Shown piece by piece: positions 12,667 to 48,019 of a stretch of 64,000 nucleotides of DNA. This DNA is from Myxococcales bacterium. GTDB lineage: Bacteria > Myxococcota_A > Polyangia > Polyangiales > DASUME01. Positions within the stretch are counted from its first letter, which is position 1, and the number at the start of each line of letters is the position of its first letter. A model generated the notes under the pieces. It did not search any database. It was not told the DNA's origin and saw nothing but the letters and a program-made list of their open reading frames with translations. Where the stretch lies: NCBI GenBank assembly GCA_047601445.1, contig JASGJH010000001.1, forward strand, positions 5,120,001-5,184,000, in the 5' to 3' direction. The position numbers were made by a program, and so were the translations under genes.

Positions 12667-13443
12667 TCACGGTACGCCTTCGGTCACCAGCTGTTGAATG
12701 CGCGTGCGATGCGTGGACTTGGGGAAATCCTTCCCGAAGGCCTGCGCGCGTTGAGCCGCTGCGGGCTGCTTGCCGGTACGCACGAGCGCTTCGATGGCGA
12801 GCACCTCGCGCTCTTCGGCGAAGGCTCCACGTGGATACTCACGTGCATGCTCCTCGGCCAGCTCGAGCGTGCGACCGGGGTCGGCCAGGAGCACACGGCG
12901 CGCCCGCATCAAGATGGAGAGCTCGGCCGCCGGGTCGTGCTTTTCGACCTCGGGCGTGACGGTGGGCAGCTCGGCGGGCTTGACGCGCGCCTTCTTCTCC
13001 GCGCGCCTCACGGGCTGCTCGAGCGGTACAGGCGCAGGATCCACGCTCCGCTCGGGCCGGGCAGACAAGGCCTGCACAGAGGGATCTTCCACGGGCTGGG
13101 CAGGTTGGATCGGAACCACGATGGACGGAGCCTTGGGTTCCTGACGCGCCCAGTACATGCCGAGCAATCCGACCAGCGTGATCAGCATGCCGAACTTCAG
13201 GAGCGTGCCACTCCGCACGGACTTCACCGGACGAGGCGGACTCGGCGGTGCCGTCTCGGCAGCCGCTGCGGCCTCGGCAGCCAGGCGAGCCGAGAGCTCG
13301 GTGAACATACGCACCCGCTGATCGCCGTTGGGACCCACCTTGGCCTCGTGCGCGAGACCCAGGGCCACCGTCCGCCAATCGTCATCGCGCTCGAGCCAGC
13401 GCGGGGGGGCTTGACGTGGCTCATCCCGCACTCCTCTTCGCAT
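12667..13443 (-). CDS. Putative anti-sigma factor / membrane protein with C-terminal TPR-like helices
   Basis: Directly follows the ECF sigma; one TM (LLKFGMLITLVGLLGMYW), Pro-rich linker, ELSILMRARRVL...EEHAREYPRGAFAEEREVLAIEAL repeat typical of myxobacterial ECF partners. Start ambiguous: 13443 in frame, or 13424 via a slip in a G7 run. Confidence 0.7.
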   Translation of the reverse strand: MRRGVRDEPRQAPPRWLERDDDWRTVALGLAHEAKVGPNGDQRVRMFTELSARLAAEAAAAAETAPPSPPRPVKSVRSGTLLKFGMLITLVGLLGMYWARQEPKAPSIVVPIQPAQPVEDPSVQALSARPERSVDPAPVPLEQPVRRAEKKARVKPAELPTVTPEVEKHDPAAELSILMRARRVLLADPGRTLELAEEHAREYPRGAFAEEREVLAIEALVRTGKQPAAAQRAQAFGKDFPKSTHRTRIQQLVTEGVP

Positions 13444-13987
13444 AGGCACGCCGCTGTTGCGCCGCCTGAACCTTTTGTACGAAGCGCTGAATCTCCTCAC
13501 GCGCCGCGTACAAACGCGAGAGCGCCGTGCTCTCGGGAACATCGAGACTCGCTGCCACCTCGGCCATGGTGAGCCCCTCGAGCTCGTACAGCGCGAACAC
13601 CTCGCGCTTATCGTCGTCCATGCGCGTGAGCGCTTCGGCCGCCAGCTCCAGTACCTGCTTCTGCGAAGCGAGGTCGAAGGCCGTGACCAGCGAGGTCCCC
13701 GACGTGTGCTCACTCTCCTCGATATCGAGCACCTCGCGCCGGAGATGGGCCTTGCGCCGATGGCCGAGCGCCACACGCGCCGCGATACCGTAGACCCACG
13801 TGCGCATGCTGGAACGCCCCTCGAACTCGGGTAGCCTGCGATGCACCACCAAGAACACTTCCTGACAAGCGTCCTCGAGCTCGCGCTCAGGCACCCCGTG
13901 GCGCTTGAGCACGCGCCACACGAAGTCCACGTGCTCGGCGAAGAGCACATGGAAGTTCGTGCGAAGCTCGTGGACGTTGGGGTTCAT
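13421..13987 (-). CDS. RNA polymerase sigma-70 factor, ECF subfamily
   Basis: Region 2 (EDACQEVFLVVHRRLPEFEGRSSMRTWVYGIA) and region 4 (REVFALYELEGLTMAEVAASLDVPESTALSRLYAAR); ATGA overlap with lipoprotein A1. Confidence 0.95.
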   Translation of the reverse strand: MNPNVHELRTNFHVLFAEHVDFVWRVLKRHGVPERELEDACQEVFLVVHRRLPEFEGRSSMRTWVYGIAARVALGHRRKAHLRREVLDIEESEHTSGTSLVTAFDLASQKQVLELAAEALTRMDDDKREVFALYELEGLTMAEVAASLDVPESTALSRLYAAREEIQRFVQKVQAAQQRRAYAKRSAG

Positions 13988-15309
13988 TGGGGGAAGTCGA
14001 AGCGCGCTAGCTGATGAGTGGAGGTCAGGGCGTACACGGCATTGTCGTTGCCAGCGACCAGCTCGTAGGGAGCGATGCCCGGCACCAGCACGCAGCTCAC
14101 CTGCTGCGCGTCGTTCATCCGGCAAAGCGTGGCGGTCTGGGCGTCGCGCTCACCCGTGGAGGTGATCAAGTAGCTGCCTCCAACACGGTCTGGGGCCTGC
14201 TTGGAAACCGTCATCAGCGTGAACCCCACACGTTGTAGGAGCACTTCATCGACGCCCGCGTCATTCACGCGCATCCAATGGATGTCCCCGACCAAATCGT
14301 CAGGTGTCGCCACCACCACGCGCCCCGCAGAGTCAGCGGACAGGCTAACGGAAGCGCCGCCGCCGAAATAGCCCCTGGACAAGACATTGCCGGTCTTCCA
14401 GTCGAGATCCGAGACTTGCATCGCCCATTCGTACGTGGAGTCATCGCCCGACAGGGTTACCGGTTTTCCGTCCTTCGCGGGAGAAGCATTCAGAAAGTCC
14501 GTTCCCAGCTTTCTGTTGACCACCGTGAGCACGTCGGAGCTCTTCAAGAACGCGATCGCTTCGTTCGGTGAACCCTCGATCGGAATCTCCCCCAGCGCAC
14601 CTTGCTGCCAGCTAGCGTGACCGTCCGCCGAGGTCCGTTGCGCGATCATTCCTGCCTTGAAGCCGAGAAACATGAAGTTCGAACTCGTGGGATCGCGCTG
14701 CGCCGAACTGAGCGCCCCAAACTCGTGGAAGAAGCGCGTCGCCGGCTCCTGAGCCGTCGCCCCGAGCGCGATGAACTCGTGCCAGATGGCACCACTTCCA
14801 TCGGCATGGCCGACACAGTTCCAGGCCCAGCGCGTGCTGAACACGGAGTCCTGGCCTCCCATGAGGCCGTAGAGCGAGAGGACTGAGCCCTTGTCGTCGA
14901 TCTTTCCGTCGCAAGGAAGCTTGGCCGCGGGCATGCCGATGTCCTGGCTCCCGAGTTCCTTCTCGGCATCGAACTGGCGTACCTTGAACGTGAACTGTCC
15001 GTCCTGCTTCTGCACGACCCAGACGGTGCCGTTGGCGCCCGCAGTGAGGATGACTTCAGTGGTGTCCGTCGAACCGAGGTCCCAGGTGGTGGTCGGGCTC
15101 AAGGTCGGCAGGTCCCGCATCGGATAGGTCGCAACCAGGTTCGCCGCCCCCAGGCTTTCCGCCTTGGGCAGCTCGCAGCTCGACTCGATGCACGGTTCCT
15201 TCATGTTGCCGATGTTTCCCTGGTCTCCACAGGCCACGATCGACAGCGCCCATAGCGCACCGCGACCCGCCACCCAGCAACTGCCCTTGCCCTGTCCCAT
15301 TCGCTTCAT
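13984..15309 (-). CDS. Lipoprotein, array paralog A1 (probable beta-propeller)
   Basis: Lipobox IVACGD; shared motifs DWKTGNV, GRVVVA, GDIHW, GGSYLITSTGER, TLC..SC, RFDFP. Confidence 0.8.
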   Translation of the reverse strand: MKRMGQGKGSCWVAGRGALWALSIVACGDQGNIGNMKEPCIESSCELPKAESLGAANLVATYPMRDLPTLSPTTTWDLGSTDTTEVILTAGANGTVWVVQKQDGQFTFKVRQFDAEKELGSQDIGMPAAKLPCDGKIDDKGSVLSLYGLMGGQDSVFSTRWAWNCVGHADGSGAIWHEFIALGATAQEPATRFFHEFGALSSAQRDPTSSNFMFLGFKAGMIAQRTSADGHASWQQGALGEIPIEGSPNEAIAFLKSSDVLTVVNRKLGTDFLNASPAKDGKPVTLSGDDSTYEWAMQVSDLDWKTGNVLSRGYFGGGASVSLSADSAGRVVVATPDDLVGDIHWMRVNDAGVDEVLLQRVGFTLMTVSKQAPDRVGGSYLITSTGERDAQTATLCRMNDAQQVSCVLVPGIAPYELVAGNDNAVYALTSTHQLARFDFPQ

Positions 15310-15355
15310 GCCCGTTCGTGCGGGTCACTTGGCCTTTCCTCGAAACTTTTCTCGC
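15310..15355 (-). promoter_or_regulatory. Conserved promoter-like motif, copy 1 (AAAAGTTTCGAGGAA-N14-GCAC-N8-ATG)
   Basis: GAAAAGTTTCGAGGAA AGGCCAAGTGACCC GCAC GAACGGGC ATG. Confidence 0.75.
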
Positions 15356-15372
15356 TCTGGCCCTTCTTCCCT

Positions 15373-16458
15373 TCAAAACAGCAAACTGGGGCCCATATTC
15401 ACCACGTACGATACCCGGGGCACCTCGAAGGCCGTGGCGTCGTGGTCGATCACGAAGCGCCGGGAAAGCGCATTCACGCGCGCCGCTCCCGAGGCCGAGA
15501 GGCCCCAGTGCTCCGCCAGCCGCACCAGGAGCTCCAGCCCCAACGAGACCCCGAAGCCACTGAGAACAGCGCTGTCATTGCTCAAGAATCCGCTACCCTT
15601 CTGCCGCCACAGGGAGTACTCGGGCGAGAGGCAGGCCCGCAGGTGCAGGCGCCCCCCGAGGTCACCCCCCGAGCACATACCGATCACGAAATCGAATGCT
15701 TGGGCCTTCACCGCCGTGTTTTGGCTCAAGTGCATCCCCCCGAGCCCGGACGCGCCGCGAAAGGTGCTCACCATGCTCAGCCTGCGACGCAGGCGAGAAG
15801 CGAAGGAAAGGCTGGCACCCACGAGCGGATCCGGGGCGACCCCGAACTCGGCGAGAGCGGCCAGGCGTACGTCACGGGGCGGCCACGGACGGACGGACTC
15901 AGGCTTTGGAGTTGGGGCAAGAAGCGGGGCGGGCTCGGGCGGACTGAACTCCGGCACGGGTGCTGGCGGCATTTCATCGAGCTCACTCAGGAGCCGCTTC
16001 TCTGCGGGCTCTTCGCTCGAGAGCAGCCCCAGCAGTGCCGGGGGGAGATCCGCCAGAGAGAGATTCGGATCCACCATCATGGCCACGATGAACACCAGAG
16101 GCTCGTCGAGCTCACGACAGTCCACCGCGTTCTGCTCGAGCACACGCTGGCCACCCGGCGCGCCCCCACGCTCCGACAACGTGATGCGCGCGTAGTAGCG
16201 CCCAGGCGCCACCGCCTCGATGTGTCCCTCGATGAAGCGCGCCGCATGCGCAGGAGCATTCAGGCTGGTGCCGGTGAGTTGCTCCACCCGCTCCGCCAGC
16301 GTGGCGGGGTCGATGCAACCCACGGCGTTCTCGGAGCGCGACCAGTGCAACGCAGGAGCGTCACCGACATCGGCTTGGGCGCCGCTGGTGAGCGCGAGCG
16401 CGAGCACGGCGCCGCAGAGCGTGGCCCTCAGCCGAAACATCGAGCCGCTATGTAGCAA
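15373..16458 (-). CDS. Exported protein, paralog B1 (N-terminal Cys-containing domain, Pro linker, C-terminal beta-barrel-like domain)
   Basis: Signal peptide, LHWSRSENAVGCIDP...IEGHIE...CRELD..LVFIVAMMVDPNLS, amphipathic strands, terminal Phe; start 16458 or 16440. Confidence 0.75.
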   Translation of the reverse strand: MLHSGSMFRLRATLCGAVLALALTSGAQADVGDAPALHWSRSENAVGCIDPATLAERVEQLTGTSLNAPAHAARFIEGHIEAVAPGRYYARITLSERGGAPGGQRVLEQNAVDCRELDEPLVFIVAMMVDPNLSLADLPPALLGLLSSEEPAEKRLLSELDEMPPAPVPEFSPPEPAPLLAPTPKPESVRPWPPRDVRLAALAEFGVAPDPLVGASLSFASRLRRRLSMVSTFRGASGLGGMHLSQNTAVKAQAFDFVIGMCSGGDLGGRLHLRACLSPEYSLWRQKGSGFLSNDSAVLSGFGVSLGLELLVRLAEHWGLSASGAARVNALSRRFVIDHDATAFEVPRVSYVVNMGPSLLF

Positions 16459-16501
16459 AGCGAAGCAGGTTCTTCACTAGGTCTCGCCGCGCTACGAAAC
16501 C

Positions 16502-17761
16502 TCACAAGGGAAAGTCGTAGCGCACGAGGGAAGGCTTCTGCTGTATGAGCGGGTCAGTATGCACGGCGTAGAGGACTCCAGGCTGGTCCGAGACGGCGAG
16601 CTCAAATATGTTGGGCATCGGCATCACTGCGCACGAGATCGTTCCTGCGTCTCCCCAGCGACATACCGTCGGCTGCTCAGCGCCGCGCTCGCCCGAGCGG
16701 GTCAGGAGGTAGGTTCCTCCCAGCGCGTCAGGCTCCAACGCGTACGGATCCATCAGCGTATAGCTCGAGCGCACCATGGTCACACCATCCGTCGTCGTTC
16801 CATCGGACCGCAGCCATTCGATATCGCCCGACGAATTGGTTGCCGCAACCACCGAACGCCCACGAGAGTCGACGGCCACACGGTATTGTGACCACGGCAG
16901 GTAGTAGGCGTGCTGGGACACGACATTGCCGGTGTCCCAGTCCAACGTGAAGTGGGTGATGAGGTCCGGAGGTCCGAAGCGTCCCACCAACGCTAGCTGG
17001 TTCGCGGCGTCGAATGCGATGCGGAGTCCGCCAGCGGTGTCCAATGGCCCGGTCACAGGTCCAGTGGCTGACTGCTGCCACAGCAACTCGCCGTGGCCAT
17101 CGATGCGACTTGGAATCACACCGTTTCCCATGCTCAGCACGGCGTAATCCTTCGCGTTGGACAAACGTTGGATCGCATAGGGAGGCATGACCGTCGGATT
17201 GTCTCGATGAAGCAGCGTTCGAGTCGGCCCCTCCTGCACGGTCGCCCCGAATGAGACCAGCTCCAGCCGATAGTCCGCAGTTCTGCCGTCACAATAGGAT
17301 TGCCAGTCGGCCACGAGCAGTGGCCCTGGACTGCTCGTGACAATTCGTTGACTGACGATCGCTTGGTCGAGTTCGAAGGTGCAACCCGGCCCGGCCTCGG
17401 GAGCCGGAACGTCGAGCGCACCCAGCTCCGTGCCGTCGGCCTGAATCTGACGCACGTGGTAGGAGGACCCGGCCAAGGAGACTTCCCAGACGGTGCCATT
17501 GGTACCGGCCGCAATCGAACCGCTGAGCGGAATCGACCAGGCAGCCTCGAGCACCCCCATGCTCGGCATCACCTCGGTGACTTGGTCATCGGAGGCGGGT
17601 GACTGGGCCTCTTTCGGGAGCTCGCAGGAGATCTTCTCTCCCACGCAGAACGCGTTGTTCTCTCCGACGCTCGCCGAATCCCCGCATGCGCCCACGAGCA
17701 CCAGCCCCCCACCAAGCAGGACTGTCTTGTACTTCGCCATGAACACCGCCTTCACCTTCAT
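16502..17761 (-). CDS. Lipoprotein, array paralog A2
   Basis: Lipobox VGACGD; DWDTGNV, GDIEW, RSSYT, GGTYLLTRSGER, RYDFPL; start set from the promoter motif. Confidence 0.8.
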   Translation of the reverse strand: MKVKAVFMAKYKTVLLGGGLVLVGACGDSASVGENNAFCVGEKISCELPKEAQSPASDDQVTEVMPSMGVLEAAWSIPLSGSIAAGTNGTVWEVSLAGSSYHVRQIQADGTELGALDVPAPEAGPGCTFELDQAIVSQRIVTSSPGPLLVADWQSYCDGRTADYRLELVSFGATVQEGPTRTLLHRDNPTVMPPYAIQRLSNAKDYAVLSMGNGVIPSRIDGHGELLWQQSATGPVTGPLDTAGGLRIAFDAANQLALVGRFGPPDLITHFTLDWDTGNVVSQHAYYLPWSQYRVAVDSRGRSVVAATNSSGDIEWLRSDGTTTDGVTMVRSSYTLMDPYALEPDALGGTYLLTRSGERGAEQPTVCRWGDAGTISCAVMPMPNIFELAVSDQPGVLYAVHTDPLIQQKPSLVRYDFPL

Positions 17762-17807
17762 GCCCATGCGTGCAGCTGGGCGCATCGTTCCTCGAAACTT
17801 TTCTCGC
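17762..17807 (-). promoter_or_regulatory. Conserved promoter-like motif, copy 2
   Basis: GAAAAGTTTCGAGGAA CGATGCGCCCAGCT GCAC GCATGGGC ATG. Confidence 0.75.
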
Positions 17808-17826
17808 TCTCTCCGAGTGGCCAGCG

Positions 17827-19122
17827 TCAGAGGGGAAAGTCGTAGCGCACCAGATGCCGCTGAAAATGCTCGTCGCTGTGGACGCCGTACACCACTCCGC
17901 GCTGATCGGAGACGGCGATCATTTGCATCTCGAGCAAGGGTGTCAGAGCACACGAGACCTGCTGAGTGTCGCTCAGGTAGCAAAGCGTGGTCTCGTCTGC
18001 ACCGCGGTCGCCGGTGCTCGTCAAGAGGTACGCGCCGCCAAACGCGTCCGGCTGCAGTGCGTGCACTGACATCAGCGTGTAGCTGGAGCGAACCATGGTG
18101 AACCTGGTCGAGACCGTCCCGTCGATGCGGAGCCACTCGATGTCGCCGGTGCCGTTGGTCGCCGCCACCACCAGGCGATTGCGGGAGTCGATCGTCGTCT
18201 TGTACTGCGGCCATGGCATGAAGTCGACGCGCTGGGACAACACATTGCCCGTGTTCCAGTCGATTCTGTAGGTGGTGAGGTTCTGAACGTAGTCCTGCAC
18301 GTTGCTTGGCACCGTGACTCCAAAGCGTCCCACGAGCAGCAGTTGATCGGCTCCGCCGAAGGCGACCATGGTCTCGAACTCATCCATCGCCTGCGGCGTG
18401 CTCACGCTCACCGTGGCGTTCTGCTGCCAGAGCACCTCGCCTCGCGCGTCGACGCGAGCCGAGAACCAACCATCCATCACGCTGAGGACTGCAAAGTCTT
18501 CGGCCCCAGGCGGACGCTGGATCATGCGAGGGTTGAAAGGAGCAGGATTTCCCTGCGCAAGCATGGTTCGCGAAAAGCCCTCCTGCACGCTGCCCTTCAA
18601 CGCGTAGGCCTCGATCTGGTTTTGGGGAACCGCGGGCGCACAGTTGTTGTACCAGGTCGTGAAGAAAACCGGTCCCGGGTTGCTCGGATACAGCCAGGCG
18701 CCCGAGTTAGCCACATCGGCGTCGAAGCGGCAGCCGTGTTTGGGCTCGGGCGGGGGGATGTCCAGCGTACCGAGCTCCGCACCATCATCCCGAAGTTGGC
18801 GCACATGGAAGGACTCAACTGCGGCACCGCCAGCCGAGATTTCCCACACCGTGCCATTGGTGCCGGCCGCGATCGATCCGTTCCCCAGAGGTACCGACCA
18901 GGTCGGATCGAGCAGCTCTATCGTCGGCGTCACGTCCGCATTCGAGGGATCAACCACCCCTTGGTCGAACTCCTCGGGCAGCTCGCAGGAGATCTTCTCT
19001 CCGAGGCAGGACGTGCGGTTGTCCCCGACGCTGGCCGAGTCACCACACGCGCACGCCAGCATCAGCATTCCGCCAAGCACGGCCTTCTTGTTTCTTGCCA
19101 CGGTCACCACCTTCACTATCAA
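17827..19122 (-). CDS. Lipoprotein, array paralog A3
   Basis: Lipobox ACACGD; DWNTGNV, GDIEW, RSSYT, GGAYLLTSTGDR, RYDFPL; start TTG 19122 (motif position) or ATG 19128. Confidence 0.8.
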   Translation of the reverse strand: MIVKVVTVARNKKAVLGGMLMLACACGDSASVGDNRTSCLGEKISCELPEEFDQGVVDPSNADVTPTIELLDPTWSVPLGNGSIAAGTNGTVWEISAGGAAVESFHVRQLRDDGAELGTLDIPPPEPKHGCRFDADVANSGAWLYPSNPGPVFFTTWYNNCAPAVPQNQIEAYALKGSVQEGFSRTMLAQGNPAPFNPRMIQRPPGAEDFAVLSVMDGWFSARVDARGEVLWQQNATVSVSTPQAMDEFETMVAFGGADQLLLVGRFGVTVPSNVQDYVQNLTTYRIDWNTGNVLSQRVDFMPWPQYKTTIDSRNRLVVAATNGTGDIEWLRIDGTVSTRFTMVRSSYTLMSVHALQPDAFGGAYLLTSTGDRGADETTLCYLSDTQQVSCALTPLLEMQMIAVSDQRGVVYGVHSDEHFQRHLVRYDFPL

Positions 19123-19167
19123 GCCCATGCGTGCAGTCACGCGCATCGTTCCTCGAGATTTCGCGCG
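19123..19167 (-). promoter_or_regulatory. Conserved promoter-like motif, copy 3
   Basis: GAAATCTCGAGGAA CGATGCGCGTGACT GCAC GCATGGGC TTG. Confidence 0.72.
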
Positions 19168-19181
19168 CTGGGCGCTCGATT

Positions 19182-20456
19182 TCAGATGGGAAAGTCGAAG
19201 CGCGCGAGACGTGTCCCGGTCTGTTGATCCCACGCCTGCGCGTAGAGCACGCCGGGGATGTCCGAAACGACGAAGTTGCGCGCTTCCGGCACCAAGGCGC
19301 AGGAGATCGCCATGGCGTCGTTCATGTAACAGAGGGTCTGAACGGCCGCGTTGCGATCGCCGGAGGCAGTCACGAGATAGGTGCCACCCACGCTGTCCGC
19401 GATGAGCGATTGCACCGCAAGGTAAGTATAACCTTCACGGATGATCGTCCTCTCGTCGAGCGCGGCTCCCTGCGAGCGCGACCACGAGATGTCCCCGCTG
19501 TAAGTGCTGCCCGCAACGACCGTTCGTCCCTCGGAGTCGAGCGCAAACGTCGCACTACCGTCCAACAGGAGGCCGGGCACGGCCGTCCGAGATTGCACGC
19601 TGCCAGTCTCCCAGTCGAGCACGACCATGGAAGGCGTCACGCTACCCTGGTCCTGCGGCAGCTCACCGATCACGACCAAGGAGCCATCGACTCCCCAGAA
19701 GAGCGACGCGTAAGTAAAATTCCCGAACTCGAGCTCTCGGTCGTAGAACTCTCTCGCGATCGACGACTGCTGCCAGACGATGTCCCCGGCGGCGTCGATC
19801 CGCGTCGGCGCCCAACCTTTCGGGAAGAGGGGCAGCACCGCGTGTTCGTTGCTCTGCGCCTTGCGCGCCAGGACAGGTGGAACCGTGTTGCCGGTAACAT
19901 CGAGATCGGCACGGGTGACCGGCTCGGATACGCTCGAGCCGAAATCGATGACCTCCGCCTGAGTGTCGTAGATGCCTCCCGGGCAGTGCACTGACCAGCC
20001 AACGACCAGCGTCGGTCCAGGATCGCCTTGGTTGAGGCTGAACACGGGGATGTCCTGCTGAACGCACTTGAGGTCCGCCGGGGGCAGGATGTCTTGCGTC
20101 CCGAGCACCCCTCCATCGGCATTCAGCTGCCAAAGACGGATCCCGGTCAGGCCGAGTACCGCGGTGGCTGACCAGAAGGTTCCACCAACACCAGCAACCA
20201 TCTGGCCGTCGCTGCCGCCGTTGACCGTCTCCCAGGTAGGCATGAGCGTGGGGAGGGGTCCGGGGGTGATCTCGACGGGCTGGGAAGATTGCGAAAGCGA
20301 GGTGTATTTGGGCAACTCACCACAGTGAATCTTGTCGCCCTGACAGTTCGCCTCCGTGTACCCGACGTTGGCCTGATCACCGCATCCCGTGAGCAGCGCC
20401 AGCCCGAAGCCCGCCAGGACCCCGACTCGCCGAGAGCGTCCAGTTGCGTTGTGCAT
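19182..20456 (-). CDS. Lipoprotein, array paralog A4
   Basis: Lipobox LTGCGD; DWETGSV, GRTVVA, GDISW, GGTYLVTASGDR, RFDFPI. Confidence 0.8.
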   Translation of the reverse strand: MHNATGRSRRVGVLAGFGLALLTGCGDQANVGYTEANCQGDKIHCGELPKYTSLSQSSQPVEITPGPLPTLMPTWETVNGGSDGQMVAGVGGTFWSATAVLGLTGIRLWQLNADGGVLGTQDILPPADLKCVQQDIPVFSLNQGDPGPTLVVGWSVHCPGGIYDTQAEVIDFGSSVSEPVTRADLDVTGNTVPPVLARKAQSNEHAVLPLFPKGWAPTRIDAAGDIVWQQSSIAREFYDRELEFGNFTYASLFWGVDGSLVVIGELPQDQGSVTPSMVVLDWETGSVQSRTAVPGLLLDGSATFALDSEGRTVVAGSTYSGDISWSRSQGAALDERTIIREGYTYLAVQSLIADSVGGTYLVTASGDRNAAVQTLCYMNDAMAISCALVPEARNFVVSDIPGVLYAQAWDQQTGTRLARFDFPI

Positions 20457-20501
20457 GCCCCTGTGTGCAGCCGAACGCGCCGCTCCTCGAAACTTTCTCG
20501 C
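20457..20501 (-). promoter_or_regulatory. Conserved promoter-like motif, copy 4
   Basis: GAAAGTTTCGAGGAG CGGCGCGTTCGGCT GCAC ACAGGGGC ATG. Confidence 0.72.
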
Positions 20502-20535
20502 GGCCTCGACTCCCATCACCCCGACCCGGCTCCGC

Positions 20536-21678
20536 TCAGAACCCCAAGCTCGGCCCCAAGCTCACCAGGTACGAAAGCTCGGGCACCGCATAGCCCACCC
20601 GAGTGTCGTCATACACGAACCGTCGTCCGAGCAGGTTGGCCCGCGCGCTGCCGCTCGCCACGAAGCCCAGAGTCCCCCGCAAGCGCACGCGCAGCTCGAG
20701 CGTCGCCGCCACGCCGACCCCGCTCAAGAGGGCGCTGCGATCGCGGTCGAAGCTCGCTCCACGCTGCCGCCAGAGCGAATATTCGGGGCCCACGCAGGCG
20801 CGCACGCGCACGCCGCGTTCGGCGGCCATGCCACCGCACAGCGCCACCGCCGCGTCGAAGGCCTGAGCTTTGACGCGTTCCTCGGAATGTTCGGGCAGGC
20901 TCATCGCGCCGAGGCCCGACGTGCCACGCAAGGTGCCCATCAGGCTCGCGTAGGTCCCCCACTGCCGCGCCAGCGACGCGCCGAGCCCCAACAGCCCGCT
21001 CGGCGCCACCTCGAACATCCCGACTCCCATCACGCCGAGCTCCCAGGTGGAAGCAAGCGGTGCGGCTGGAAGCGCAGGCGTTCGTGGGACCTCGGGTGTT
21101 GGCTCGGGGTCCTCGATCAACGGTCGCGCGGCCGCCGCAGGCGGTGCGGGCTCGGTCGGAATCGGGACCGCCACGGGTTGCGGTGGGTTCGCGTCGAGCT
21201 CGGCCAAGAGCTGCTGCTCTGCGGGGACTTCACTGCTGACGAGTCCTACCAGGGCAGGTGGAAGCCCTTCCAGCGATAGATTCGGGTCCAGCATCATGGC
21301 AACGATGAACACCAGCGCGTCGTCGAGCTCGCGACAGCTCGGTGCCGTCTGCTCCAACACGCGGTGTCCGTGCGCCTCTCGGGCAGGTTCCCACAGCACC
21401 ACGCGTGCGCGAAAGTGCTGCTCGGAGGTGCGCTCGATGTGCCCCTCGATCACCCGCCGCGCCTCGCTCGGCGCACTCGATGTCGCTTGAGGATGCTCGT
21501 GCCCTGATGGTGAGCGCGGTGCTCTTACTCGGCCTGGCCGCCCCGGTGCGCGCCGAGCCGCCCGCCGCCACGAGCTTGCACTGGGCACGCGCGGAGAGTG
21601 CCGCTGAATGCATCGACCCAGTGAGTCTCGGGGAGCGCGTGGAGCGGCTCACCGGCAGTCGTTTGATTTGCAGTGCAT
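20536..21678 (-). pseudogene. Paralog B2, interrupted by inversion of its 5' segment (21477-21666)
   Basis: C-terminal part on the minus strand (SAPSEARRVIEGHIE...GPSLGF); signal peptide and LHWARAESAAECIDP...LTGSRL lie on the plus strand; flipping the segment gives a 380-aa ORF from ATG 21678. Confidence 0.85.
21477..21666 (+). other. Inverted 190-bp intragenic segment bounded by TC...GA
   Basis: Both junctions restore the reading frame exactly and match the B1 and B3 alignment with no gap. Confidence 0.85.
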
Positions 21679-21715
21679 GCGAGTGGGGCTCGAGAGGTGA
21701 TTTTCTGTTCCCCGT

Positions 21716-23023
21716 TCACCCCTGCGTGGGTAAGTCAAAACGCAAAAGCTCACCGTTGCGGCCGACACCGAACACTGCTTCCCCCGGACCCACCACCGGA
21801 CCAATCATGAGCTCTGGTGTCCGCCAGCAGGAAACCTCGAGTGCCGCGCTGAGGCGACACAGCGTGGGCACAGGGTTGTCCCGCGACCCCGTCCGAGTGA
21901 GCAGATAGCTCGTGCCCTGAGCGCCCACCTCGAGTCCGAGCAACACAGGCACCTGATAGTCCTGACGCAGCAGCGTGATCTGCTCGAACGCGCTGCCCGC
22001 AAGGCGGCCCCACACGAGGTCGAGGTTCTGCGAGCTCGCCATCACCAGACGCCCCTCCGGGTCAGCTCGCACGACGGCATCGTAGCTCGGCGTGAAGTCC
22101 ACCCCACGCCGCTTGATCACGTTGCCCGAGTGCCAGTCGAGGTCGAAGAAGGTGGCTGACCCGCCCTCGCTCAGCGTTCCCATCAGCGTCAGCTGCTGCG
22201 GGCCCGAGAACACCAGCGCGGAGCCGAGCGCGCCCGGAATCTGAAAACCCTCTGGGAACCCGGTCTGCTGCCACTCGATGTCGCCGGCAGCCGAGAGACG
22301 CGCCGTGGTCCAGCCCGCGCTCACGACCGACAGCGCCAGATAGTCCGCGCCGTTGGCCTCGCGCATGGCAAAAGGCGGCAAGAACGAGGCCTCGAGGGCC
22401 GATGTTTCGCTCTCTCCCAACAGCACGCGCATGGCTGCGTCCTGCACGCTCGCGCCAAAGGCGACCAGCTCCGTGCGTTCACAACTGAGCAGTTCGTCTC
22501 CCTGGCAGGCCTGCTTCCACTCGAGGGCCGCGGTGGGTCCGGGAATGCCCGCAGACACGTTGTAGAGCAGGCTCAACGAGATGTCGTCGGCGGTGCCCCG
22601 CAGCCCCGGAGGCGCCTGCAGTTGCTGCGTACCGAGCACGTTGCCGTCCCCGTCGAGCTGCATGACCGTGAACTGCTCGGCATCCGCGCCAAACGTCCAC
22701 AACGAGCCATCGTTCCCTGCGATCGTGCGCCCCAAGAGCAGCGCCGTGTCGCCAGGCTGCAACGAAGGTAGCGGGGGCCGGCTCCAGGTCGCCTTCAATT
22801 CCTCGGTCGCGATCAGCGGGACTGTGCGCGGGTCCGCCGTCATCGCGAACTCCGTATTCTCGGGCACCTCGCACTTCACGCCTTCGCCCATGCAAACGGG
22901 CTTTCGGGTGTACCCCACGTAGGCAACGTCCCCGCAGGCCGCCAAGAGCGCCATGGCACCAGCGAGCGCCCACTGCATTCCCTGCACGGCCAGGCTCTTC
23001 ATTGCGCGGTTCCTAGGGTTCAT
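21716..23023 (-). CDS. Lipoprotein, array paralog A5
   Basis: Lipobox LAACGD; DWHSGNV, GRLVMA, SYLLTRTGSR, TLC..SC, RFDLP. Confidence 0.8.
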   Translation of the reverse strand: MNPRNRAMKSLAVQGMQWALAGAMALLAACGDVAYVGYTRKPVCMGEGVKCEVPENTEFAMTADPRTVPLIATEELKATWSRPPLPSLQPGDTALLLGRTIAGNDGSLWTFGADAEQFTVMQLDGDGNVLGTQQLQAPPGLRGTADDISLSLLYNVSAGIPGPTAALEWKQACQGDELLSCERTELVAFGASVQDAAMRVLLGESETSALEASFLPPFAMREANGADYLALSVVSAGWTTARLSAAGDIEWQQTGFPEGFQIPGALGSALVFSGPQQLTLMGTLSEGGSATFFDLDWHSGNVIKRRGVDFTPSYDAVVRADPEGRLVMASSQNLDLVWGRLAGSAFEQITLLRQDYQVPVLLGLEVGAQGTSYLLTRTGSRDNPVPTLCRLSAALEVSCWRTPELMIGPVVGPGEAVFGVGRNGELLRFDLPTQG

Positions 23024-23067
23024 GCCGGTGTGTGCGGGCACGGGAGATCTTTCTGGAAACTTTTTTC
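23024..23067 (-). promoter_or_regulatory. Conserved promoter-like motif, copy 5 (diverged)
   Basis: GAAAAAAGTTTCCAGAAA GATCTCCCGTGCCC GCAC ACACCGGC ATG. Confidence 0.65.
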
Positions 23068-23071
23068 ACCC

Positions 23072-24199
23072 TCAAAAAGCACAACCGGGGCCGAATCCCG
23101 CCGTGGCCTGGGCCCGCGGAACCGTGAACCCGGCGCCCTCCTGGTCGTACACGAACTTGCGCCCCAGCGTGCTGATCCGCAGCGCGCCAAAGCCGTGCAA
23201 CCACCAACGGCCGCGCAAGCGAATGCGCAGATCGAGGCCGGCCGCGATCCCGAAGCCGCTGAGCACCCCCGCGCGGTCACGCCCGAAGCCCGTGCCGACC
23301 TGACGCCACAGCGAGTACTCGGGACTCAAGCAGGCGCGTAGCCGTAGCATGGGCTCCCGCTCGGTCCCCACGCACACGCCGAGTGCCGCGTCGAAGGCCT
23401 GCGCATGGACCATCACGAACGACGAGGAGTCGACGACGGCGGCCGTGTAGCTCCGTGCGCCACGCAGGGTCCCGACCAAGCTCCAGACAGGACTCAGGCG
23501 CCGAAACAGCGAGGCATCGACGCCGTACAGTGTGCCAGGTGCCACGTTGAACTGCGCCATTCCCGCGAGCCTTACTTCGAGCGGTCCCTCCGAGCTGCTC
23601 GTCGCGCGCGGAGGCTTGGGCTCGGCCTTTGGTGCCTGGGGAGCGGGGCGTGCCGGTTCGGGAGCGGACTCCGTGGGATCGAGGAGCTGCGTGTTCGCAG
23701 CTGGAGCCTGTTGCTGCTCGAGCTCGGCGAGGAGCGCTTGATCCGGGCTCGATTCGCCCGAGATGAGCTTGAGCAGCGCGGGCGAGAGTCCCTCGATGGA
23801 GAGATTGGGATCCACCATCATACCCACCATGAAGACGATGGCCCCGTCCAGCTCGCGGCAGTCCTTCGCCTGTTGCTCGAGCACGCGCTGGCCGCCCGTG
23901 TCGTGGCCGCGCTCGGTGAGCGTGATGCGCACCCGATAGTGCTCGGGCACGGGACTCTCGATCTGCCCCTCGATGCTGCGCAAAGCATGCGCGGGTCGAC
24001 TCAAGGTGGTGCCAGTGAGTTGCTCCACGCGCTCCGCCAGGACGGCCGGCGCGATGCACCCGCGAGCGCTCTCGGAGCGAGTCCAATGAAGCGCCGGTGG
24101 TTCGAGGTCCGCGGCGCGCACATGAGCCGAGACGCCGATCGACGCCGCGACGAAGGCCCAGGCGAGTCGAGCGAGCACGGGGCGGCCCTCCGAGTTCAT
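23072..24199 (-). CDS. Exported protein, paralog B3
   Basis: LHWTRSESARGCIAP...IEGQIE...CRELDGAIVFMVGMMVDPNLS...ACLSPEYSLWRQ...GPGCAF. Confidence 0.75.
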   Translation of the reverse strand: MNSEGRPVLARLAWAFVAASIGVSAHVRAADLEPPALHWTRSESARGCIAPAVLAERVEQLTGTTLSRPAHALRSIEGQIESPVPEHYRVRITLTERGHDTGGQRVLEQQAKDCRELDGAIVFMVGMMVDPNLSIEGLSPALLKLISGESSPDQALLAELEQQQAPAANTQLLDPTESAPEPARPAPQAPKAEPKPPRATSSSEGPLEVRLAGMAQFNVAPGTLYGVDASLFRRLSPVWSLVGTLRGARSYTAAVVDSSSFVMVHAQAFDAALGVCVGTEREPMLRLRACLSPEYSLWRQVGTGFGRDRAGVLSGFGIAAGLDLRIRLRGRWWLHGFGALRISTLGRKFVYDQEGAGFTVPRAQATAGFGPGCAF

Positions 24200-24234
24200 G
24201 CACCGTTTCTTAGCAGTCGGGAACTTCAGCGCTC

Positions 24235-35647: not shown

Positions 35648-37003
35648 GTGCTTCGCGGTATCCCGCGCCCCGTAATTTTCGCCGTGGTGCTGCTCGCCCT
35701 GCCGGTGCTGTCGCTGTGGGCGTGGCCATGGTTCGGGCTCGGCATGCTGCCTGGCATTCGCGTCGGCGAGTTCGAGCTGCCGGCGAGCGGCTCGGTGGAC
35801 AACTTCTTGAGCGAGAAGGCGCGGCTATGGGCCGAAGAGAGCCTCACGGTGGAGGCTGGCTACCACGTCTGGCATCCCACACGGGCGGAGCTCGGGGCGA
35901 GCCTCTCGGTGGAAGATGCGCAGGAGGCCATCGCGCGCGTGGGCCGCTCACCGAGCCCCTTCGTGGCGGTATTCGCCTGGATTCAGGGCGCTTTCGGGGC
36001 CGGTCACCGGGTGCGCTGGCGGGCGCGCGTCACGCAGGAGAGCGCCGTTCAGGAGTTCGTGCAGCGCGTGGTCGATGAAGTCGATCGCCTGCCCATCCCC
36101 GGCAGCTTCGATCCCGACGGCAAGCCCATCGACGGCCTGCCCGGCGAAGCGGTGGATCCTCAAGAAGTCGAACGCGCCCTCCGCGCGGCCTTGGCGCGCA
36201 ACGCGACCAAGCTCCACGTCGCCACCATCGTCACGCCCGCGCCGCACTCGCGCCGCCGCTTCAGCAACCCCGTGTCTGACGCCAGCGTGTTGATGGTGCG
36301 CCAAGAGACCAACTACCGGCCAGGCCAGGGACGCGCCACCAACATCGAGCTGGCCGCCAAGAAGATCGACGGCACGCTGGTGATGCCCGGAGCAGTGCTC
36401 TCGTTCAATCAGGTGGTGGGCAAGCGCGACGCGGCACGGGGGTTCGCACCCGCGCTCGAGCTGATGAACGGCGAGGTCGTGGAAGGCGTCGGCGGCGGTG
36501 TATGTCAGGTCGCCGGCACACTGCATGCCGCGGCGTTCTTTGCGGGTCTCATCGTGGAGGAGTACCGCCCGCACTCGCGACTCAACCAGTTCGCCTACCT
36601 GCGTCCGGGCCTCGACACCATGGTGGCCTGGCCGGACCACGCGACCGACCTCTCGGAGACGAAGGACATGCGCGTGCGGAACCCCTACCCTTTCCCCATC
36701 GTGGTGCGCGCGAGCACGGAGCGAATCGGCCCGGGGCAAGGGGTGCTGCGGGTGGATCTCTACGGCGCGGCCAAGCCTTTCCGGGTGGACTTCTCGTTCC
36801 AGGAGCTCGAGCGTGTACCCGCGAGCGAGATCCGGCGTCCCGATCCCACGGTGGCGCGGGGCGAGGAACGCGTACAGCAGCAGCCATTGGACGGCATCGT
36901 GATCTTGCGCAGTCGCACCATCTTCATGCCCACGGGAAGAGTGGAAGAAGAGACGAAGGTGGCGTACCCGCCGACGCCGAAGATTGTGTTGGTGGGAGCA
37001 TAG
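35648..37003 (+). CDS. VanW family protein
   Basis: RATNIELAAKKIDG...SFNQVVG...GVGGGVCQVAGTL...RPHS; N-terminal TM. Confidence 0.9.
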   Translation: MLRGIPRPVIFAVVLLALPVLSLWAWPWFGLGMLPGIRVGEFELPASGSVDNFLSEKARLWAEESLTVEAGYHVWHPTRAELGASLSVEDAQEAIARVGRSPSPFVAVFAWIQGAFGAGHRVRWRARVTQESAVQEFVQRVVDEVDRLPIPGSFDPDGKPIDGLPGEAVDPQEVERALRAALARNATKLHVATIVTPAPHSRRRFSNPVSDASVLMVRQETNYRPGQGRATNIELAAKKIDGTLVMPGAVLSFNQVVGKRDAARGFAPALELMNGEVVEGVGGGVCQVAGTLHAAAFFAGLIVEEYRPHSRLNQFAYLRPGLDTMVAWPDHATDLSETKDMRVRNPYPFPIVVRASTERIGPGQGVLRVDLYGAAKPFRVDFSFQELERVPASEIRRPDPTVARGEERVQQQPLDGIVILRSRTIFMPTGRVEEETKVAYPPTPKIVLVGA

Positions 37004-37038
37004 AAAGGCGTGCGGCGGGAAACTAACCGCAAGCCTCC

Positions 37039-38607
37039 TCACCCCTGGGACTTACTCCCCGAGTTCGTATCCGTGCTGCCCATGGCGGATAGGTAGGTTC
37101 GCGCGAAGGCGCGCCCCAGGAACGCACGCTGGTAGCGATCGCCGTCGACGAGGCCCTCGTAGACGGCCACGAAGCGCCGCCACAGGCGCTGCTCGGGGCC
37201 ATCCCGGGAACTGATGCGCTTCCACAATCCAGGCGACGACTCGGACTGCTCGATCTCCGCCGGATCGATGCCTTCGGCCTCCGCGATGGCGGCCGGCGAC
37301 AAGGTCTCGAGCAACTCGCGTGCGCCGCCGAGGGTGGCCTTGAAGAGCGCGAACTCGTGCACCACCACCTCGCGCGCAACCTCCTCGAGCTCGCCCAGGC
37401 GCTCTTCCCAGTCTCCCTTGGGATTCAGCAGGTAAGCGAGCACCACGCGGCCATCGTCGCTGCGGATCACCGAAGCGCGCGGGGCGCGACCGAGCCAACG
37501 CGCGCGCACCGACTGCTGCGCGTCGTTGATCTCGGCGAAGGACTGCGAGAGCACCTCGAGCAGGGCCAGCACGCGCTGCAGCGTGAGCCCCGTGTCGAGG
37601 TGGAACTTGGGCGGCAAGATGCCCTCGGCGACCCCGCGCAGCCAGGCACTGATCTCCGGGATGTCGATCTTGCGCGGCTCGATGCCGTGGCGCTTGAGGA
37701 GCTCGCGGAACTCGGCCTCGTAGGCGATCTGCGGGTAGCGCCGCTGCATGTCGTCGGCGATGGCCTGGCGCGCCTCCGGGCCCGCGGCCTCGAGGGTAAC
37801 GCTGAGCCCTGCGAACAAGTGAGACCAGGCGCTGCGATAATTGGCGTAGTGCCACTCGGGATCGCCCGAGGTCTCGCGCCCTACGGGCGGCTGCGCCGAA
37901 CGGGCCGGCGCGGGCTCGCTCCGGGGCCTGGCCGCAGGGCTTTCGGAGGGGGACGAAGGCGGGGCCGTGGGCGCGGGCTCGCTGCGCGGGGACACACGGG
38001 CCTGCGTGCCGTCGCCCTGCAAGCCAATGATCCGCTGAGCCGAGATTTGAACACCCGGGGGCACCTGCTGCGGGGCCGCGGGGGTGCGGGCAGGCGCGGG
38101 CGCGGACGGCTTGGCCTGCGCGGGACTCGGGCTCGCTTCGGGTGTCGGCGCGGGGGCCTTGGCCGCTTGGGCAGCCTGGACAGCCGCCTGCACAGCTTGG
38201 AACGCCGCGCGATCGTCCGCGCCTAACCACATCGTCTTGGCGACCTCGGGCTGCGCCACCGCGGGCTTGTGCTTGCCCTTGCGCCGCACGTCCGCCTCCG
38301 GGACGGGCTCACGCGAGAAACGCAGGATCAGCCCACCGATGCGCAGCGGGACCTCCGCCGAGATCGTGAGCTCGTCGTGCGCCGCTGCCTCGCGATCGCC
38401 CACGAACGTCACGTTGGTGGAGCTCACGTTGCAGTAGGTGATGCCGCGGTCGTCGAAGCGTACGGTCCCTTGCCAGCGGGAGACGAAGGCTTCGGAGAGC
38501 TGCAGCTCGGCGAGTGGACTTCGTCCGATGCGGACGGGGGAGTCAGCGAACGCATAGCGCCGCTTCTGACCGGAAGCAGACTCGACGGTGACTACTAGCG
38601 GAAGCAC
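37039..38607 (-). CDS. tagH: T6SS-associated FHA-domain protein (Fha/TagH-like)
   Basis: VRIGRS...VSRWQG...SSTNVT FHA motifs, Pro-rich linker, C-terminal VVHEFALFKATLGGARELLETLSP...FLGRAFARTY; divergent from tssJ. Confidence 0.75.
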   Translation of the reverse strand: MLPLVVTVESASGQKRRYAFADSPVRIGRSPLAELQLSEAFVSRWQGTVRFDDRGITYCNVSSTNVTFVGDREAAAHDELTISAEVPLRIGGLILRFSREPVPEADVRRKGKHKPAVAQPEVAKTMWLGADDRAAFQAVQAAVQAAQAAKAPAPTPEASPSPAQAKPSAPAPARTPAAPQQVPPGVQISAQRIIGLQGDGTQARVSPRSEPAPTAPPSSPSESPAARPRSEPAPARSAQPPVGRETSGDPEWHYANYRSAWSHLFAGLSVTLEAAGPEARQAIADDMQRRYPQIAYEAEFRELLKRHGIEPRKIDIPEISAWLRGVAEGILPPKFHLDTGLTLQRVLALLEVLSQSFAEINDAQQSVRARWLGRAPRASVIRSDDGRVVLAYLLNPKGDWEERLGELEEVAREVVVHEFALFKATLGGARELLETLSPAAIAEAEGIDPAEIEQSESSPGLWKRISSRDGPEQRLWRRFVAVYEGLVDGDRYQRAFLGRAFARTYLSAMGSTDTNSGSKSQG

Positions 38608-38704
38608 GGAGTATTTCGCTCTTACTGCGTCACCCCAAACGAGGCAAGCACCGTGCGCCAGCACGCTTGAATCACCACCCCGAATCGGCAATGCTCGCCC
38701 GCCA

Positions 38705-39262
38705 ATGATGAGGAATTTCTGGGGGCGTCGGCTCGAGTATCCACTCGAGACCGGATGGCCGCTCGTATTCTTGGCGACACTCCTGTGCCTGGGTTGCGGC
38801 GGCAGCAAGCCGCCACCGCAGTGCGAGCGCCCCGAGATCGTGGAGCTCACGCTGGCACCCGAGCCCAGACTGAACCCGGATCGCGAGGGCAATCCGCGCT
38901 CCGTGGTGATCCGCGTCTTTCAGCTCAACGGCGCCGACGCCTTTTATCAAGGTAGCTTCCAAAGCCTGTGGGCGAGCGCCAACCCGAGCGGTCCCCTGCT
39001 CGCTGCGCCCGACGAGTACACGCTCATCCCCGGCAAGCAAGAAGTCTTGCGCATCGCTCGCCATCCCAAGGCGACCCACCTCGGCCTGGCGGCCAACTTC
39101 CGCGAGCAGGTGAGCGACAACTCCTGGCGCGTGGCCATCGAGCTGCCCGCTCCGCAAAACCCCTGTGAGAGCGAGGAAGAAGACCCCATCGCCGCCCACC
39201 CGGTGGTGCGCCTGATGGAGTACACGATGCGCCTCTGGCGCAGCCAAGGCGAGCAACCATGA
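38705..39262 (+). CDS. tssJ: T6SS outer-membrane lipoprotein
   Basis: Lipobox CLGC; LNPDREGNPRSVVIRVFQL, LGLAANFR, WR. Confidence 0.9.
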   Translation: MMRNFWGRRLEYPLETGWPLVFLATLLCLGCGGSKPPPQCERPEIVELTLAPEPRLNPDREGNPRSVVIRVFQLNGADAFYQGSFQSLWASANPSGPLLAAPDEYTLIPGKQEVLRIARHPKATHLGLAANFREQVSDNSWRVAIELPAPQNPCESEEEDPIAAHPVVRLMEYTMRLWRSQGEQP

Positions 39263-40086
39263 AGGCCCGAGCCAAGCGTCCTCGCCTCGAAGACTTCGAC
39301 GACCTGGGCGATCCCGCGCCCGAACCAGGCCCAGGCCCGGTCTCGCAGATCAACAAGCGCAAGGGCGTGGGCGGTGGCGATCCCGCGGTCGCTCAGCGTC
39401 TGCACGAAGCCGTGCGCCCGTGCCTCACCACGGTGCTGCAAATCCACAGCCTCAAGCGCGATCGCAAGCCGCCTCCCGAGACTGCGCAGCCTCACATGCG
39501 CCAGCTCCTGGCCACCACCATGAGCCGGCTCGAGGCGCTCAATCTGTCGCACGAGGAGCTGCAGGACCTGCGCTATGGGCTCGTGGCCTTCATCGACGAG
39601 TTCATGCAGGCCGATCCTGGGCGCCTGCGCGAGTTCTGGCAGGCCAACCTGCTGCAGCTCGAGTTCTTCGGGGAAACGCGCGCCGGTGAAGGCTTCTTCG
39701 AGCGCCTGGAGCACGCCAAGGCCGAGAACCGTCAGAGCGTGATGCGGGTCTACTACCTGTGCCTCTTGTTCGGCTTCCAAGGCATCTACGGCCAACACGG
39801 CGAGCTCGAGCGCGAGAACCTCATCGAGAGCCTCAAGGATGCGCTCGGTCAGCGCTCGCGCGTCTCCCCCACGCTCTCGCCCCACGGGGATCGCCCCGGT
39901 GAGGCCGGCGTGGACCGCACGCGCAACCGGCTGTTGCAGTGGTTGGCCGTGGCAGCCGCGAGCATGGCGGTCATCTGGTACTTCGGCCTCTTGTTCACCA
40001 TCGACGCGCAAGAACACACGCTCTCGGACGACCTCCAGGGGGCGTACGAAGACGTCAAAGCCGGCATCGTTTCGCCGGGTCGTTAG
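39259..40086 (+). CDS. tssL: T6SS DotU/TssL (no OmpA domain)
   Basis: YGLVAFIDE, LQLEFFGETRAGEGFF, VYYLCLLFGFQG, C-terminal TM. Confidence 0.93.
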   Translation: MKARAKRPRLEDFDDLGDPAPEPGPGPVSQINKRKGVGGGDPAVAQRLHEAVRPCLTTVLQIHSLKRDRKPPPETAQPHMRQLLATTMSRLEALNLSHEELQDLRYGLVAFIDEFMQADPGRLREFWQANLLQLEFFGETRAGEGFFERLEHAKAENRQSVMRVYYLCLLFGFQGIYGQHGELERENLIESLKDALGQRSRVSPTLSPHGDRPGEAGVDRTRNRLLQWLAVAAASMAVIWYFGLLFTIDAQEHTLSDDLQGAYEDVKAGIVSPGR

Positions 40087-40095
40087 GGGTAGGCG

Positions 40096-43740: not shown

Positions 43741-43741
43741 G

Positions 43742-44740: not shown

Positions 44741-44824
44741 GCGATCGTTGACAGGTGAACCCCGCAACGGCTATCGACAACCCTGGTAGCTGACTCAGAA
44801 AACGGACACTCCAGCCCTCAGGTT

Positions 44825-45877: not shown

Positions 45878-45940
45878 CCAGCCGAGATTTATGGGCGTCG
45901 GCAAGGGGGCCGGCGCTCAGAACGAGTTCGAGGAGGCAGT

Positions 45941-46462
45941 ATGTCAACCAGCTCTCAGAAATTCATCCAGCGTAACCGCGCTCCACGCGTGCAAATCGAG
46001 TACGAAGTCGAGCTCTACGGCGCCGAGAAAAAGGTTCAGCTGCCCTTCGTCATGGGAGTCATGGCCGATCTCTACGGCAAGCCCGAGAATCCGCCGCCCA
46101 AGGTCGACGAGCGCAAGTTCCTCGACGTCAACATCGACAACTTCGACGACCGCCTCAAGGCCATGAAGCCGCGCGTCGCGATGCAGGTGAAAAATACGCT
46201 CACCGGCGAGGGCTCGCTGCCCGTAGCCATCACCTTCCAGAGCATGGAGGACTTCTCGCCCGCGGCCATCGCCAACAAGGTGGAGCCTCTCAAGAAGCTG
46301 CTCGAGGCGCGTCAGCAGCTCTCCAACCTGCTCACGTACATGGACGGCAAGGGTGCCGCCGAAGAGTTGATCGCGCACAAGCTGAAGAACCTTGGTGAGT
46401 TCAAGTCACTGGTCGAGACGCTCGGCCTGGCTCCCAAGGACAAGGTCGAGGAGGGAGTCTGA
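45941..46462 (+). CDS. tssB: T6SS contractile sheath small subunit
   Basis: RNRAPRVQIEYEVELYGAEKKVQLPFVMGVMADL, SMEDFSPA. Confidence 0.97.
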   Translation: MSTSSQKFIQRNRAPRVQIEYEVELYGAEKKVQLPFVMGVMADLYGKPENPPPKVDERKFLDVNIDNFDDRLKAMKPRVAMQVKNTLTGEGSLPVAITFQSMEDFSPAAIANKVEPLKKLLEARQQLSNLLTYMDGKGAAEELIAHKLKNLGEFKSLVETLGLAPKDKVEEGV

Positions 46463-46465
46463 GCC

Positions 46466-47953: not shown

Positions 47954-48019
47954 CGCGACCGAAGGTCGGTCGTGTCCGTTGTTGGGATGAATGTTGGTCT
48001 GAATTAACTGGAGGCGACC

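Follow-up and report, generated by a model that had tools for sequence, protein, structure and literature searches.

An exact in-place inversion of about 190 bp separates the signal peptide from one of three outer-membrane paralogs in a Myxococcales genome

Results

An exact inversion interrupts one of three outer-membrane paralogs

One of three paralogous outer-membrane protein genes in this Myxococcales genome is interrupted by a short inversion, which is a genuine feature of the assembly. The gene, B2, lies with its paralogs B1 and B3 in a window of 64,000 nucleotides, to which all coordinates below refer unless the contig is named; the window is identical at every base to contig positions 5120001-5184000. 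The flip takes the signal peptide, and likely the start codon, out of B2. We judge it probable that a recent, one-off inversion in place, independent of any recombinase, inactivated one member of a redundant set of three in the assembly's dominant strain.

When B1 (15373..16440, minus strand, 355 aa) was used as a tblastn query, its match at the B2 locus was split at residue 66/67 with no sequence lost: residues 3-66 matched the plus strand at 21474-21665 (48%, E 8e-10), and residues 67-361 matched the minus strand at 21477-20539 (46%, E 2e-71). B3 (23072..24202, minus strand), identified by tblastn and alignment, gave the same split as a query, and a coding model trained on this genome changed strand at the same point. 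The tblastn split, alignment and profile scores together delimit an inverted segment of 188-190 bp at 21477..21666 on the plus strand, which is an exact reverse complement in place with nothing gained or lost. Placing the breakpoints at (21477,21666), (21478,21665) or (21479,21664) yields the identical sequence, so the overlap between the junctions is exactly 2 bp, TC at the left (21477..21478) and GA at the right (21665..21666), both on the plus strand.

Once 21477-21666 is flipped, the frame is free of stops, and 20536-21678 comprises 381 codons (380 aa and a stop). Such an open frame is not diagnostic, because hundreds of boundary pairs open one. The register of the breakpoints is settled by homologues: the TC/GA register preserves L-S-x-P at the joint, as in the three closest homologues, and it agrees with homologue spacing. 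Among 153 homologues tested for spacing, 144 aligned at both anchors, with 118 having the same spacing, 24 having +1 and 2 having -2. The competing register, whose overlap would be 5 bp (21478/21671), requires a two-residue (+2) insertion, which was present in 0 of these 144, and it was rejected. An initial annotation of this DNA had described an inversion with no base lost or duplicated, whose junctions share only a 2-bp TC/GA; both parts of that description are borne out by the splits with B1 and B3, the equivalent placements and the rejection of the longer overlap. In the deposited protein set, the 3' piece of B2 appears as a predicted protein of 305 aa from this same 9.50-Mb contig, so the deposited record is in the assembled orientation.

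The inverted segment carries the likely start codon and signal peptide

The inverted segment codes 62 B2 codons (21480-21665), which comprise the likely start codon, the signal peptide, the first strand, a conserved Cys and the first helix. Its left junction falls in the loop between the helix at 45-56 and the strand at 68-78 of the B1 structural model, and its right junction is within the 5' leader and follows a promoter-like motif by 1-2 nt. The 3' part of B2, which is supported by tblastn, the deposited protein and its profile score, occupies 20536..21477 on the minus strand (313 codons and a stop). It holds the remainder of the N-terminal domain, a Pro-rich linker, an 8-stranded barrel and a terminal Phe, and it contains no stop, no frameshift and no signal peptide. 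As the initial annotation held, the flip strips the signal peptide, now coded on the plus strand, from an outer-membrane paralog.

DNA alignment to B1 places the leader beyond the inversion at 21667..21678 on the minus strand. This leader includes the ATG at 21678, which the initial annotation took as the start. As assembled, that ATG leads into a 9-residue peptide, in agreement with the OFF reading given there. It comes into frame after flipping, but is probably not the true start, as it is another ATG, at 21480 within the inverted segment, that aligns with B1's called start at 16440. With 21480 as the equivalent of the B1 start, the inversion would carry the start codon itself, and intact B2 is probably 375 aa, judging from the sequence, rather than the 380 aa given initially; that the frame is restored by flipping stands. 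Because the transcribed strand lacks the signal peptide and the first conserved Cys, B2 would be unable to reach the outer membrane. We infer that B2 as assembled yields at most a cytoplasmic fragment without a signal peptide, with B1 and B3 intact.

The flipped state also creates a 142-aa by-product ORF (21480..21908, plus strand), found in the ORF list and by the coding model. It consists of the B2 signal peptide and 40 domain residues followed by non-coding and antisense sequence. No truncated OFF-type products of 78-249 aa were scored in other genomes.

The junctions do not stand out as a recombination site

We examined the sequence around the two junctions for signs of a recombination site. 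An overlap of at least 2 bp arose in 19% of 200,000 random placements (P 0.19). In-register matches around the junctions numbered 4/26, against a null mean of 7.2, and dyad symmetry was 2/12 and 4/12 as assembled and 5/12 and 3/12 in the unflipped form, against a null mean of 3.3. Folding at the locus was unremarkable (z 0.82). No perfect inverted repeat of at least 7 nt brackets both junctions. A weak outer inverted repeat, complementary at 16/22 positions, has its left arm at 21449..21470, 6 nt outside the left junction, and its right arm at 21680..21701, 13 nt outside the right junction, and is thus out of register. This repeat is one of 218 such pairs in 1.8 kb, and its p of ~0.015 is unadjusted and the best of 24 statistics. 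The initial annotation's statement that inverted-repeat arms are absent is therefore upheld, with this single out-of-register repeat as the nearest approach. In the assembled orientation, 21659-21670 forms a mirror repeat of five bases on either side of the right-junction core, probably by chance. An origin at TCGA restriction sites was considered and rejected, since the site occurs at only one junction and TCGA shows no sign of avoidance (O/E 1.24).

The genome encodes end-joining genes and no recognized invertase

The genome is a single contig of 9.50 Mb (66% G+C, 98.7% complete, 5.4% contamination). Its look-alike proteins are from Myxococcota, and the named relatives are mostly Polyangiales or other myxobacterial MAGs. 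Domain searches of the genome gave 0 matches to the resolvase/invertase domain PF00239 (control 12/14), 0 to PF07508 (large serine recombinase) and 0 to the IS110/Piv (DEDD) domains PF01548 and PF02371 (controls 6/14 each). Two matches to PF02796 were dismissed as invertase evidence, as their ORFs read as other HTH proteins. The tyrosine recombinase domain PF00589 had nine matches in the genome. Four of these are full-length proteins (XerD, XerC and two that are integrase-like), all far below invertase cut-offs, and the other five are fragments. None of the nine lies inside the window; the initial annotation had seen no recombinase there, and the serine and IS110 domains prove to be absent genome-wide. 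A search of the genome for serine and tyrosine invertases, which that annotation had recommended, returned no serine recombinase and, besides the five tyrosine recombinase fragments, four full-length tyrosine recombinases that score below invertase cut-offs.

Topoisomerase VI leaves 2-nt overhangs; it was rejected as a cause because the genome has no PF04406 match. The genome carries three Ku genes, at contig positions 5977045-5978707 and 8827182-8830739. Two form a tandem pair, and the third is divergently oriented to a full-length LigD gene.

No second inversion was found in this genome or in relatives

We compared 7,437 predicted genes and 15,344 hidden coding fragments all against all. This comparison yielded 24 opposite-strand pairs, two of which are the B2 locus and 22 of which lie elsewhere. 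The other regions were rejected: three by tblastn and one in six frames proved to be separate complete genes, and the rest were set aside on coordinates alone. A scan that does not depend on homology gave 82 geometric candidates. Setting aside 14 that looked like frameshifts and 40 weaker ones, we ran BLAST on the other 28. Among the 28 BLASTed candidates, only the B2 locus had a subject matching on both strands, and the candidates listed from a group of nine were frameshifts or ordinary genes. The survey for other such inversions, also suggested at the outset, found no second one at a sensitivity of ~27% (107/400 for 63-residue pieces, with 75/400 for 33-residue pieces), and up to ~11 further inversions of this size are compatible with that result.

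The comparison with relatives, likewise recommended, showed no split in their family members. Outside this genome, none of the 150 matches listed, with 180 more beyond the listing and 8 candidates scored per genome, was an opposite-strand split. Among 70 family loci (17 of them from this genome, including some duplicates), 59 had a match, and both strands were matched only in the two that cover the B2 locus. Nine genomes of the genus gave only two weak matches near E 1e-3, metagenome scans, whose scope may leave out near-identical records, turned up no same-species DNA, and the protein cluster of the B2 3' piece has one member, from one contig.

Both pieces of B2 are undecayed

To gauge decay, we scored both pieces of B2 against an independent profile of 109 sequences from which the rows of this genome had been excluded. 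The inverted N-terminal piece scored 61.7 bits in B2, compared with 67.6 in B1 and 60.7 in B3, and the 3' piece scored 270.9 bits, compared with 273.8 and 246.1, respectively. Third-position G+C is normal in both B2 pieces, and neither contains a stop. The absence of decay implies an event that is recent or still going on, or one that does not exist in the DNA itself.

The last of these options brings in the quality of the assembly. A 13.4-kb direct repeat (contig 123599-136964 and 9455897-9469255) is 99.7% identical, with 17 mostly single-base indels between its copies. Among genes with paralogs, we counted 75 strong frameshift sites, evenly spread over the genome and not enriched at homopolymers. 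The genes neighbouring B2 are without frameshifts, the nearest strong frameshift site being ~95 kb before the start of the window, and insertion-sequence copies are clean, at 99.9-100% identity within each of two variants. These variants belong to a ~1.28-kb element, presumably of the IS3 type from its ORFs, which is found at contig 9268367-9269651 and six other places; the two variants are 94% identical, with at least 7 copies. Apart from this, the 13.4-kb repeat contains large Rhs-like genes interrupted by numerous stops and frameshifts, and many decayed genes are found in the first 185 kb of the contig.

B2 belongs to an ECF sigma-linked cluster

The cluster comprises the three B genes, five lipoprotein-like A genes and one ECF sigma factor gene (13421..13987, minus strand) at its end, followed by a probable anti-sigma gene (12667-13368), assigned from its position and matching no family. 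One A paralog, with a lipobox-like Cys read from the sequence, lies directly upstream of B2 (21716..23023, minus strand), and the other four are at 13984-15309, 16502-17767, 17827-19110 and 19182-20456. No Pfam family matched the three A paralogs scanned, and no NCBIfam family matched 21716..23023. Elsewhere in the window, at ~37000-55600 and 61931-64000, the translated ORFs resemble those of a type VI secretion cluster, with genes that we take to be TssB/C, Hcp, TssE-H and a VgrG-like gene.

A promoter-like motif of two blocks with a 16-nt spacer lies at 21668..21694 on the minus strand, upstream of B2. Copies on the minus strand upstream of all five A paralogs (15318-15344, 17770-17796, 19131-19157, 20465-20491 and 23032-23058) each stand 2-9 nt upstream of an ATG. 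The motif is a candidate for the promoter of the cluster's ECF sigma factor, which, going by the sequence, would give near-leaderless mRNAs. It has 8 matches in the window against 1.23 expected, having been drawn post hoc from these genes and relaxed to admit B2. Intergenic matches with a nearby ATG across the genome numbered 12 at the 16-nt spacing, a number that includes the five A genes, compared with 3-7 at other spacings; there is no independent enrichment elsewhere in the genome. A scan for sigma-70 promoters and terminators found none.

The B proteins join an alpha/beta domain to an eight-stranded barrel

An AlphaFold2 model of B1 (110 sequences, pLDDT 91.6, pTM 0.56) consists of an alpha/beta N-terminal domain, a Pro-rich linker and an 8-stranded outer-membrane barrel. 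The C-terminal barrel resembles OmpA, NspA and OmpW (Z 17-18, rmsd 1.7-3.2 A over 133-168 residues). The N-terminal domain has a middling likeness to TraT (Z 9.9) and CsgG (Z 8.6), and TolB was among its Foldseek matches. The protein has the eight strands and terminal Phe of an 8-stranded outer-membrane barrel, together with a signal peptide as judged by eye. On this model, the B2 product is predicted to combine a CsgG/TolB-N-like domain with an 8-stranded barrel of the OmpA/OmpW type.

No Pfam or NCBIfam family matched the B proteins, which we found in 140 of the 251 genomes searched within the order. An ECF-like sigma gene is present at 27 of 37 relatives' loci of the family, and all 7 sites tested in this genome lie within 4.3 kb of one; for comparison, 4% of random sites lie within 3 kb. 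Viewed together, the cluster (window 12667-24202) and the 37 relatives' loci show a myxobacterial module, in which a gene for a signal peptide, a CsgG/TolB-N-like domain and an 8-stranded barrel sits beside ECF sigma genes. This module is possibly a TonB-independent cell-surface signalling system.

Discussion

The initial annotation considered a one-off inversion or a chimera equally possible with a switch. We rank these alternatives, with a one-off mutation first, an artefact second and a switch last. The inversion is best read as an ordinary, recent, gene-killing event with unusually little homology. A one-off event is consistent with exactly reciprocal junctions whose 2-bp overlap is at chance level, with the lack of a bracketing repeat of at least 7 nt and of excess folding, and with a genome that has no serine or IS110 domain and whose full-length tyrosine recombinases fall below invertase cut-offs. 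The B2 locus is the sole one among the 24 opposite-strand pairs and the 28 BLASTed candidates, with no split elsewhere among the 150 matches listed or the 59 loci with a match. Its pieces score like the intact paralogs amid frameshift-free neighbours, end-joining could draw on three Ku genes and a full LigD, and pure inversion without repeats is a template-switch class described in the available part of PMC5453318. Against this, the assembly contains errors of the long-read type (the 17 indels and 75 frameshift sites), the event is longer than the primate microinversions of PMC8755829 and shares just 2 nt in register, the outer repeat, besides being weak, does not line up with the junctions, and the absence of decay would suit an artefact or a switch equally.

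Two routes could lead to such a one-off inversion. We tentatively prefer an inter-strand template switch of type 1-3-2-4. In this scheme, the leading nascent strand would stall just past the promoter and anneal to the lagging template ~190 nt further on, held by a 2-nt tip and by the imperfect outer repeat, which would leave a 6-nt bulge; it would then copy backward and return. B2 is co-directional with replication and on the leading strand, with the GC-skew minimum at 5.78 Mb and the maximum at 1.12 Mb. Somewhat harder to credit, yet possible, is that the DNA broke on both strands at two nearby points, leaving compatible 2-nt ends, and that Ku/LigD rejoined the piece back to front.

The inversion might instead have arisen during library preparation or assembly, with a chimeric molecule bearing a double template switch serving as the backbone, the 190-bp flip surviving polishing, and the real gene being intact. 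We find this doubtful. Amplification chimeras usually lose sequence, but here nothing is lost or duplicated; moreover, no junction repeat would prompt a mis-join in the graph, only one such event was found genome-wide, and the local genes and insertion-sequence copies are clean. In its favour are a single 9.5-Mb contig with single-base indels in its long repeat and 75 frameshift sites, two B2 pieces free of other lesions, and the fact that neither the protein cluster nor the metagenome scans gave an independent record of the flipped form. Long-read metagenome assemblies do contain chimeras and stretches that no reads support (10.1101/2025.04.22.649783), although short in-place inversions are not among the error classes in the available part of that source.

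Reversible flipping, taking all its forms together, is unlikely. The Hin/Gin-type ON/OFF switch that had been suggested is disfavoured by the chance-level overlap and dyads, the lack of a serine recombinase and the failure to find a second inversion at a sensitivity of ~27%. More broadly, a remotely encoded recombinase, either integrase-like tyrosine or unrecognised, might flip the start codon and signal peptide in an enzyme-driven phase variation. An outer-membrane barrel is of the class usually targeted, the flip begins just past a promoter-like motif, reciprocity is exact and decay absent, and recombinases need not adjoin their sites (PMC5903667, in its available part). Nevertheless, such an enzyme is quite improbable, given junctions with no inverted-repeat arms, no dyads and fewer in-register matches than chance provides, a genome with no PF00239, PF07508, PF01548 or PF02371, paralogs B1 and B3 that are unflipped, and no recurrence among the relatives' matches listed and loci searched. 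We give equally little credence to recurrent flipping without a recombinase, in which the outer repeat and a melted promoter region would form a hot spot for low-rate, two-way template switching. That repeat lies outside both junctions, remains intact in either orientation and has a p of ~0.015 before adjustment, and the right junction adjoins the putative -10 element. However, this repeat is out of register, is a single pair among 218 and gave the best value of 24 statistics; folding is at z 0.82, and the 5-bp alternative that is in register calls for an insertion that none of 144 homologues has. Least credible is a reversible switch that works without inverted repeats or a serine, tyrosine-invertase or IS110 enzyme, through an unrecognised breakage-rejoining activity at the transcription start of B2's promoter.

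On the most likely reading, a one-off mutation, B2 is a clean case in which a redundant gene was destroyed by a 190-bp inversion with almost no homology, in an organism that has Ku and LigD; alternatively, it is a warning about long-read consensus. If both orientations proved true, it would represent a route to phase variation unseen by repeat-based inverton searches, which would be a real surprise. The B family, present in many Polyangiales-like genomes without a Pfam or NCBIfam model, may be the more lasting lead. A literature search with few subscription journals in its scope found no repeat-free bacterial inversion switch and no paper on the B protein family.

Among known systems, the serine invertases Hin, Gin and Cin cross over at a 2-bp core and produce an exact reciprocal inversion of a surface-protein target. 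B2 shares the 2-bp core, the exact reciprocity and the kind of target, but its junctions lack a matching pair of 26-bp dyad sites, and no resolvase/invertase domain was found in the genome. Invertible sites typically carry inverted repeats of 10-20 nt (PMC5903667), and intragenic invertons are defined by inverted repeats together with reads in both orientations, according to the available part of Chanin et al. (10.1101/2023.03.11.532203). The B2 inversion likewise overlaps a gene and truncates or recodes it, but is without inverted repeats and is known here from the assembly alone. Primate microinversions, as given in the available part of Potapova et al. 2022 (PMC8755829), are 17-33 nt long and always have flanking repeats of at least 3 nt; these repeats measure 3-75 nt, lie within -5 to +4 nt of the edges and may be imperfect. 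B2 is also an exact reverse complement in place, but is 188-190 nt long, with 2 nt in register and its weak repeat 6 and 13 nt away. In the template switch of type 1-3-2-4, a fragment is inverted without a repeat being made (PMC5453318). B2 shares with this class, so far as the available part of that paper describes it, the in-place inversion that creates no repeat and, on the proposed route, the inter-strand switch within one fork; the class was described from human-chimp data. Finally, the B1 model has the 8-stranded C-terminal barrel of OmpA, OmpW and NspA-type proteins, to which it adds an N-terminal alpha/beta domain, and the B family differs from these barrels in its link to ECF sigma genes in myxobacteria.
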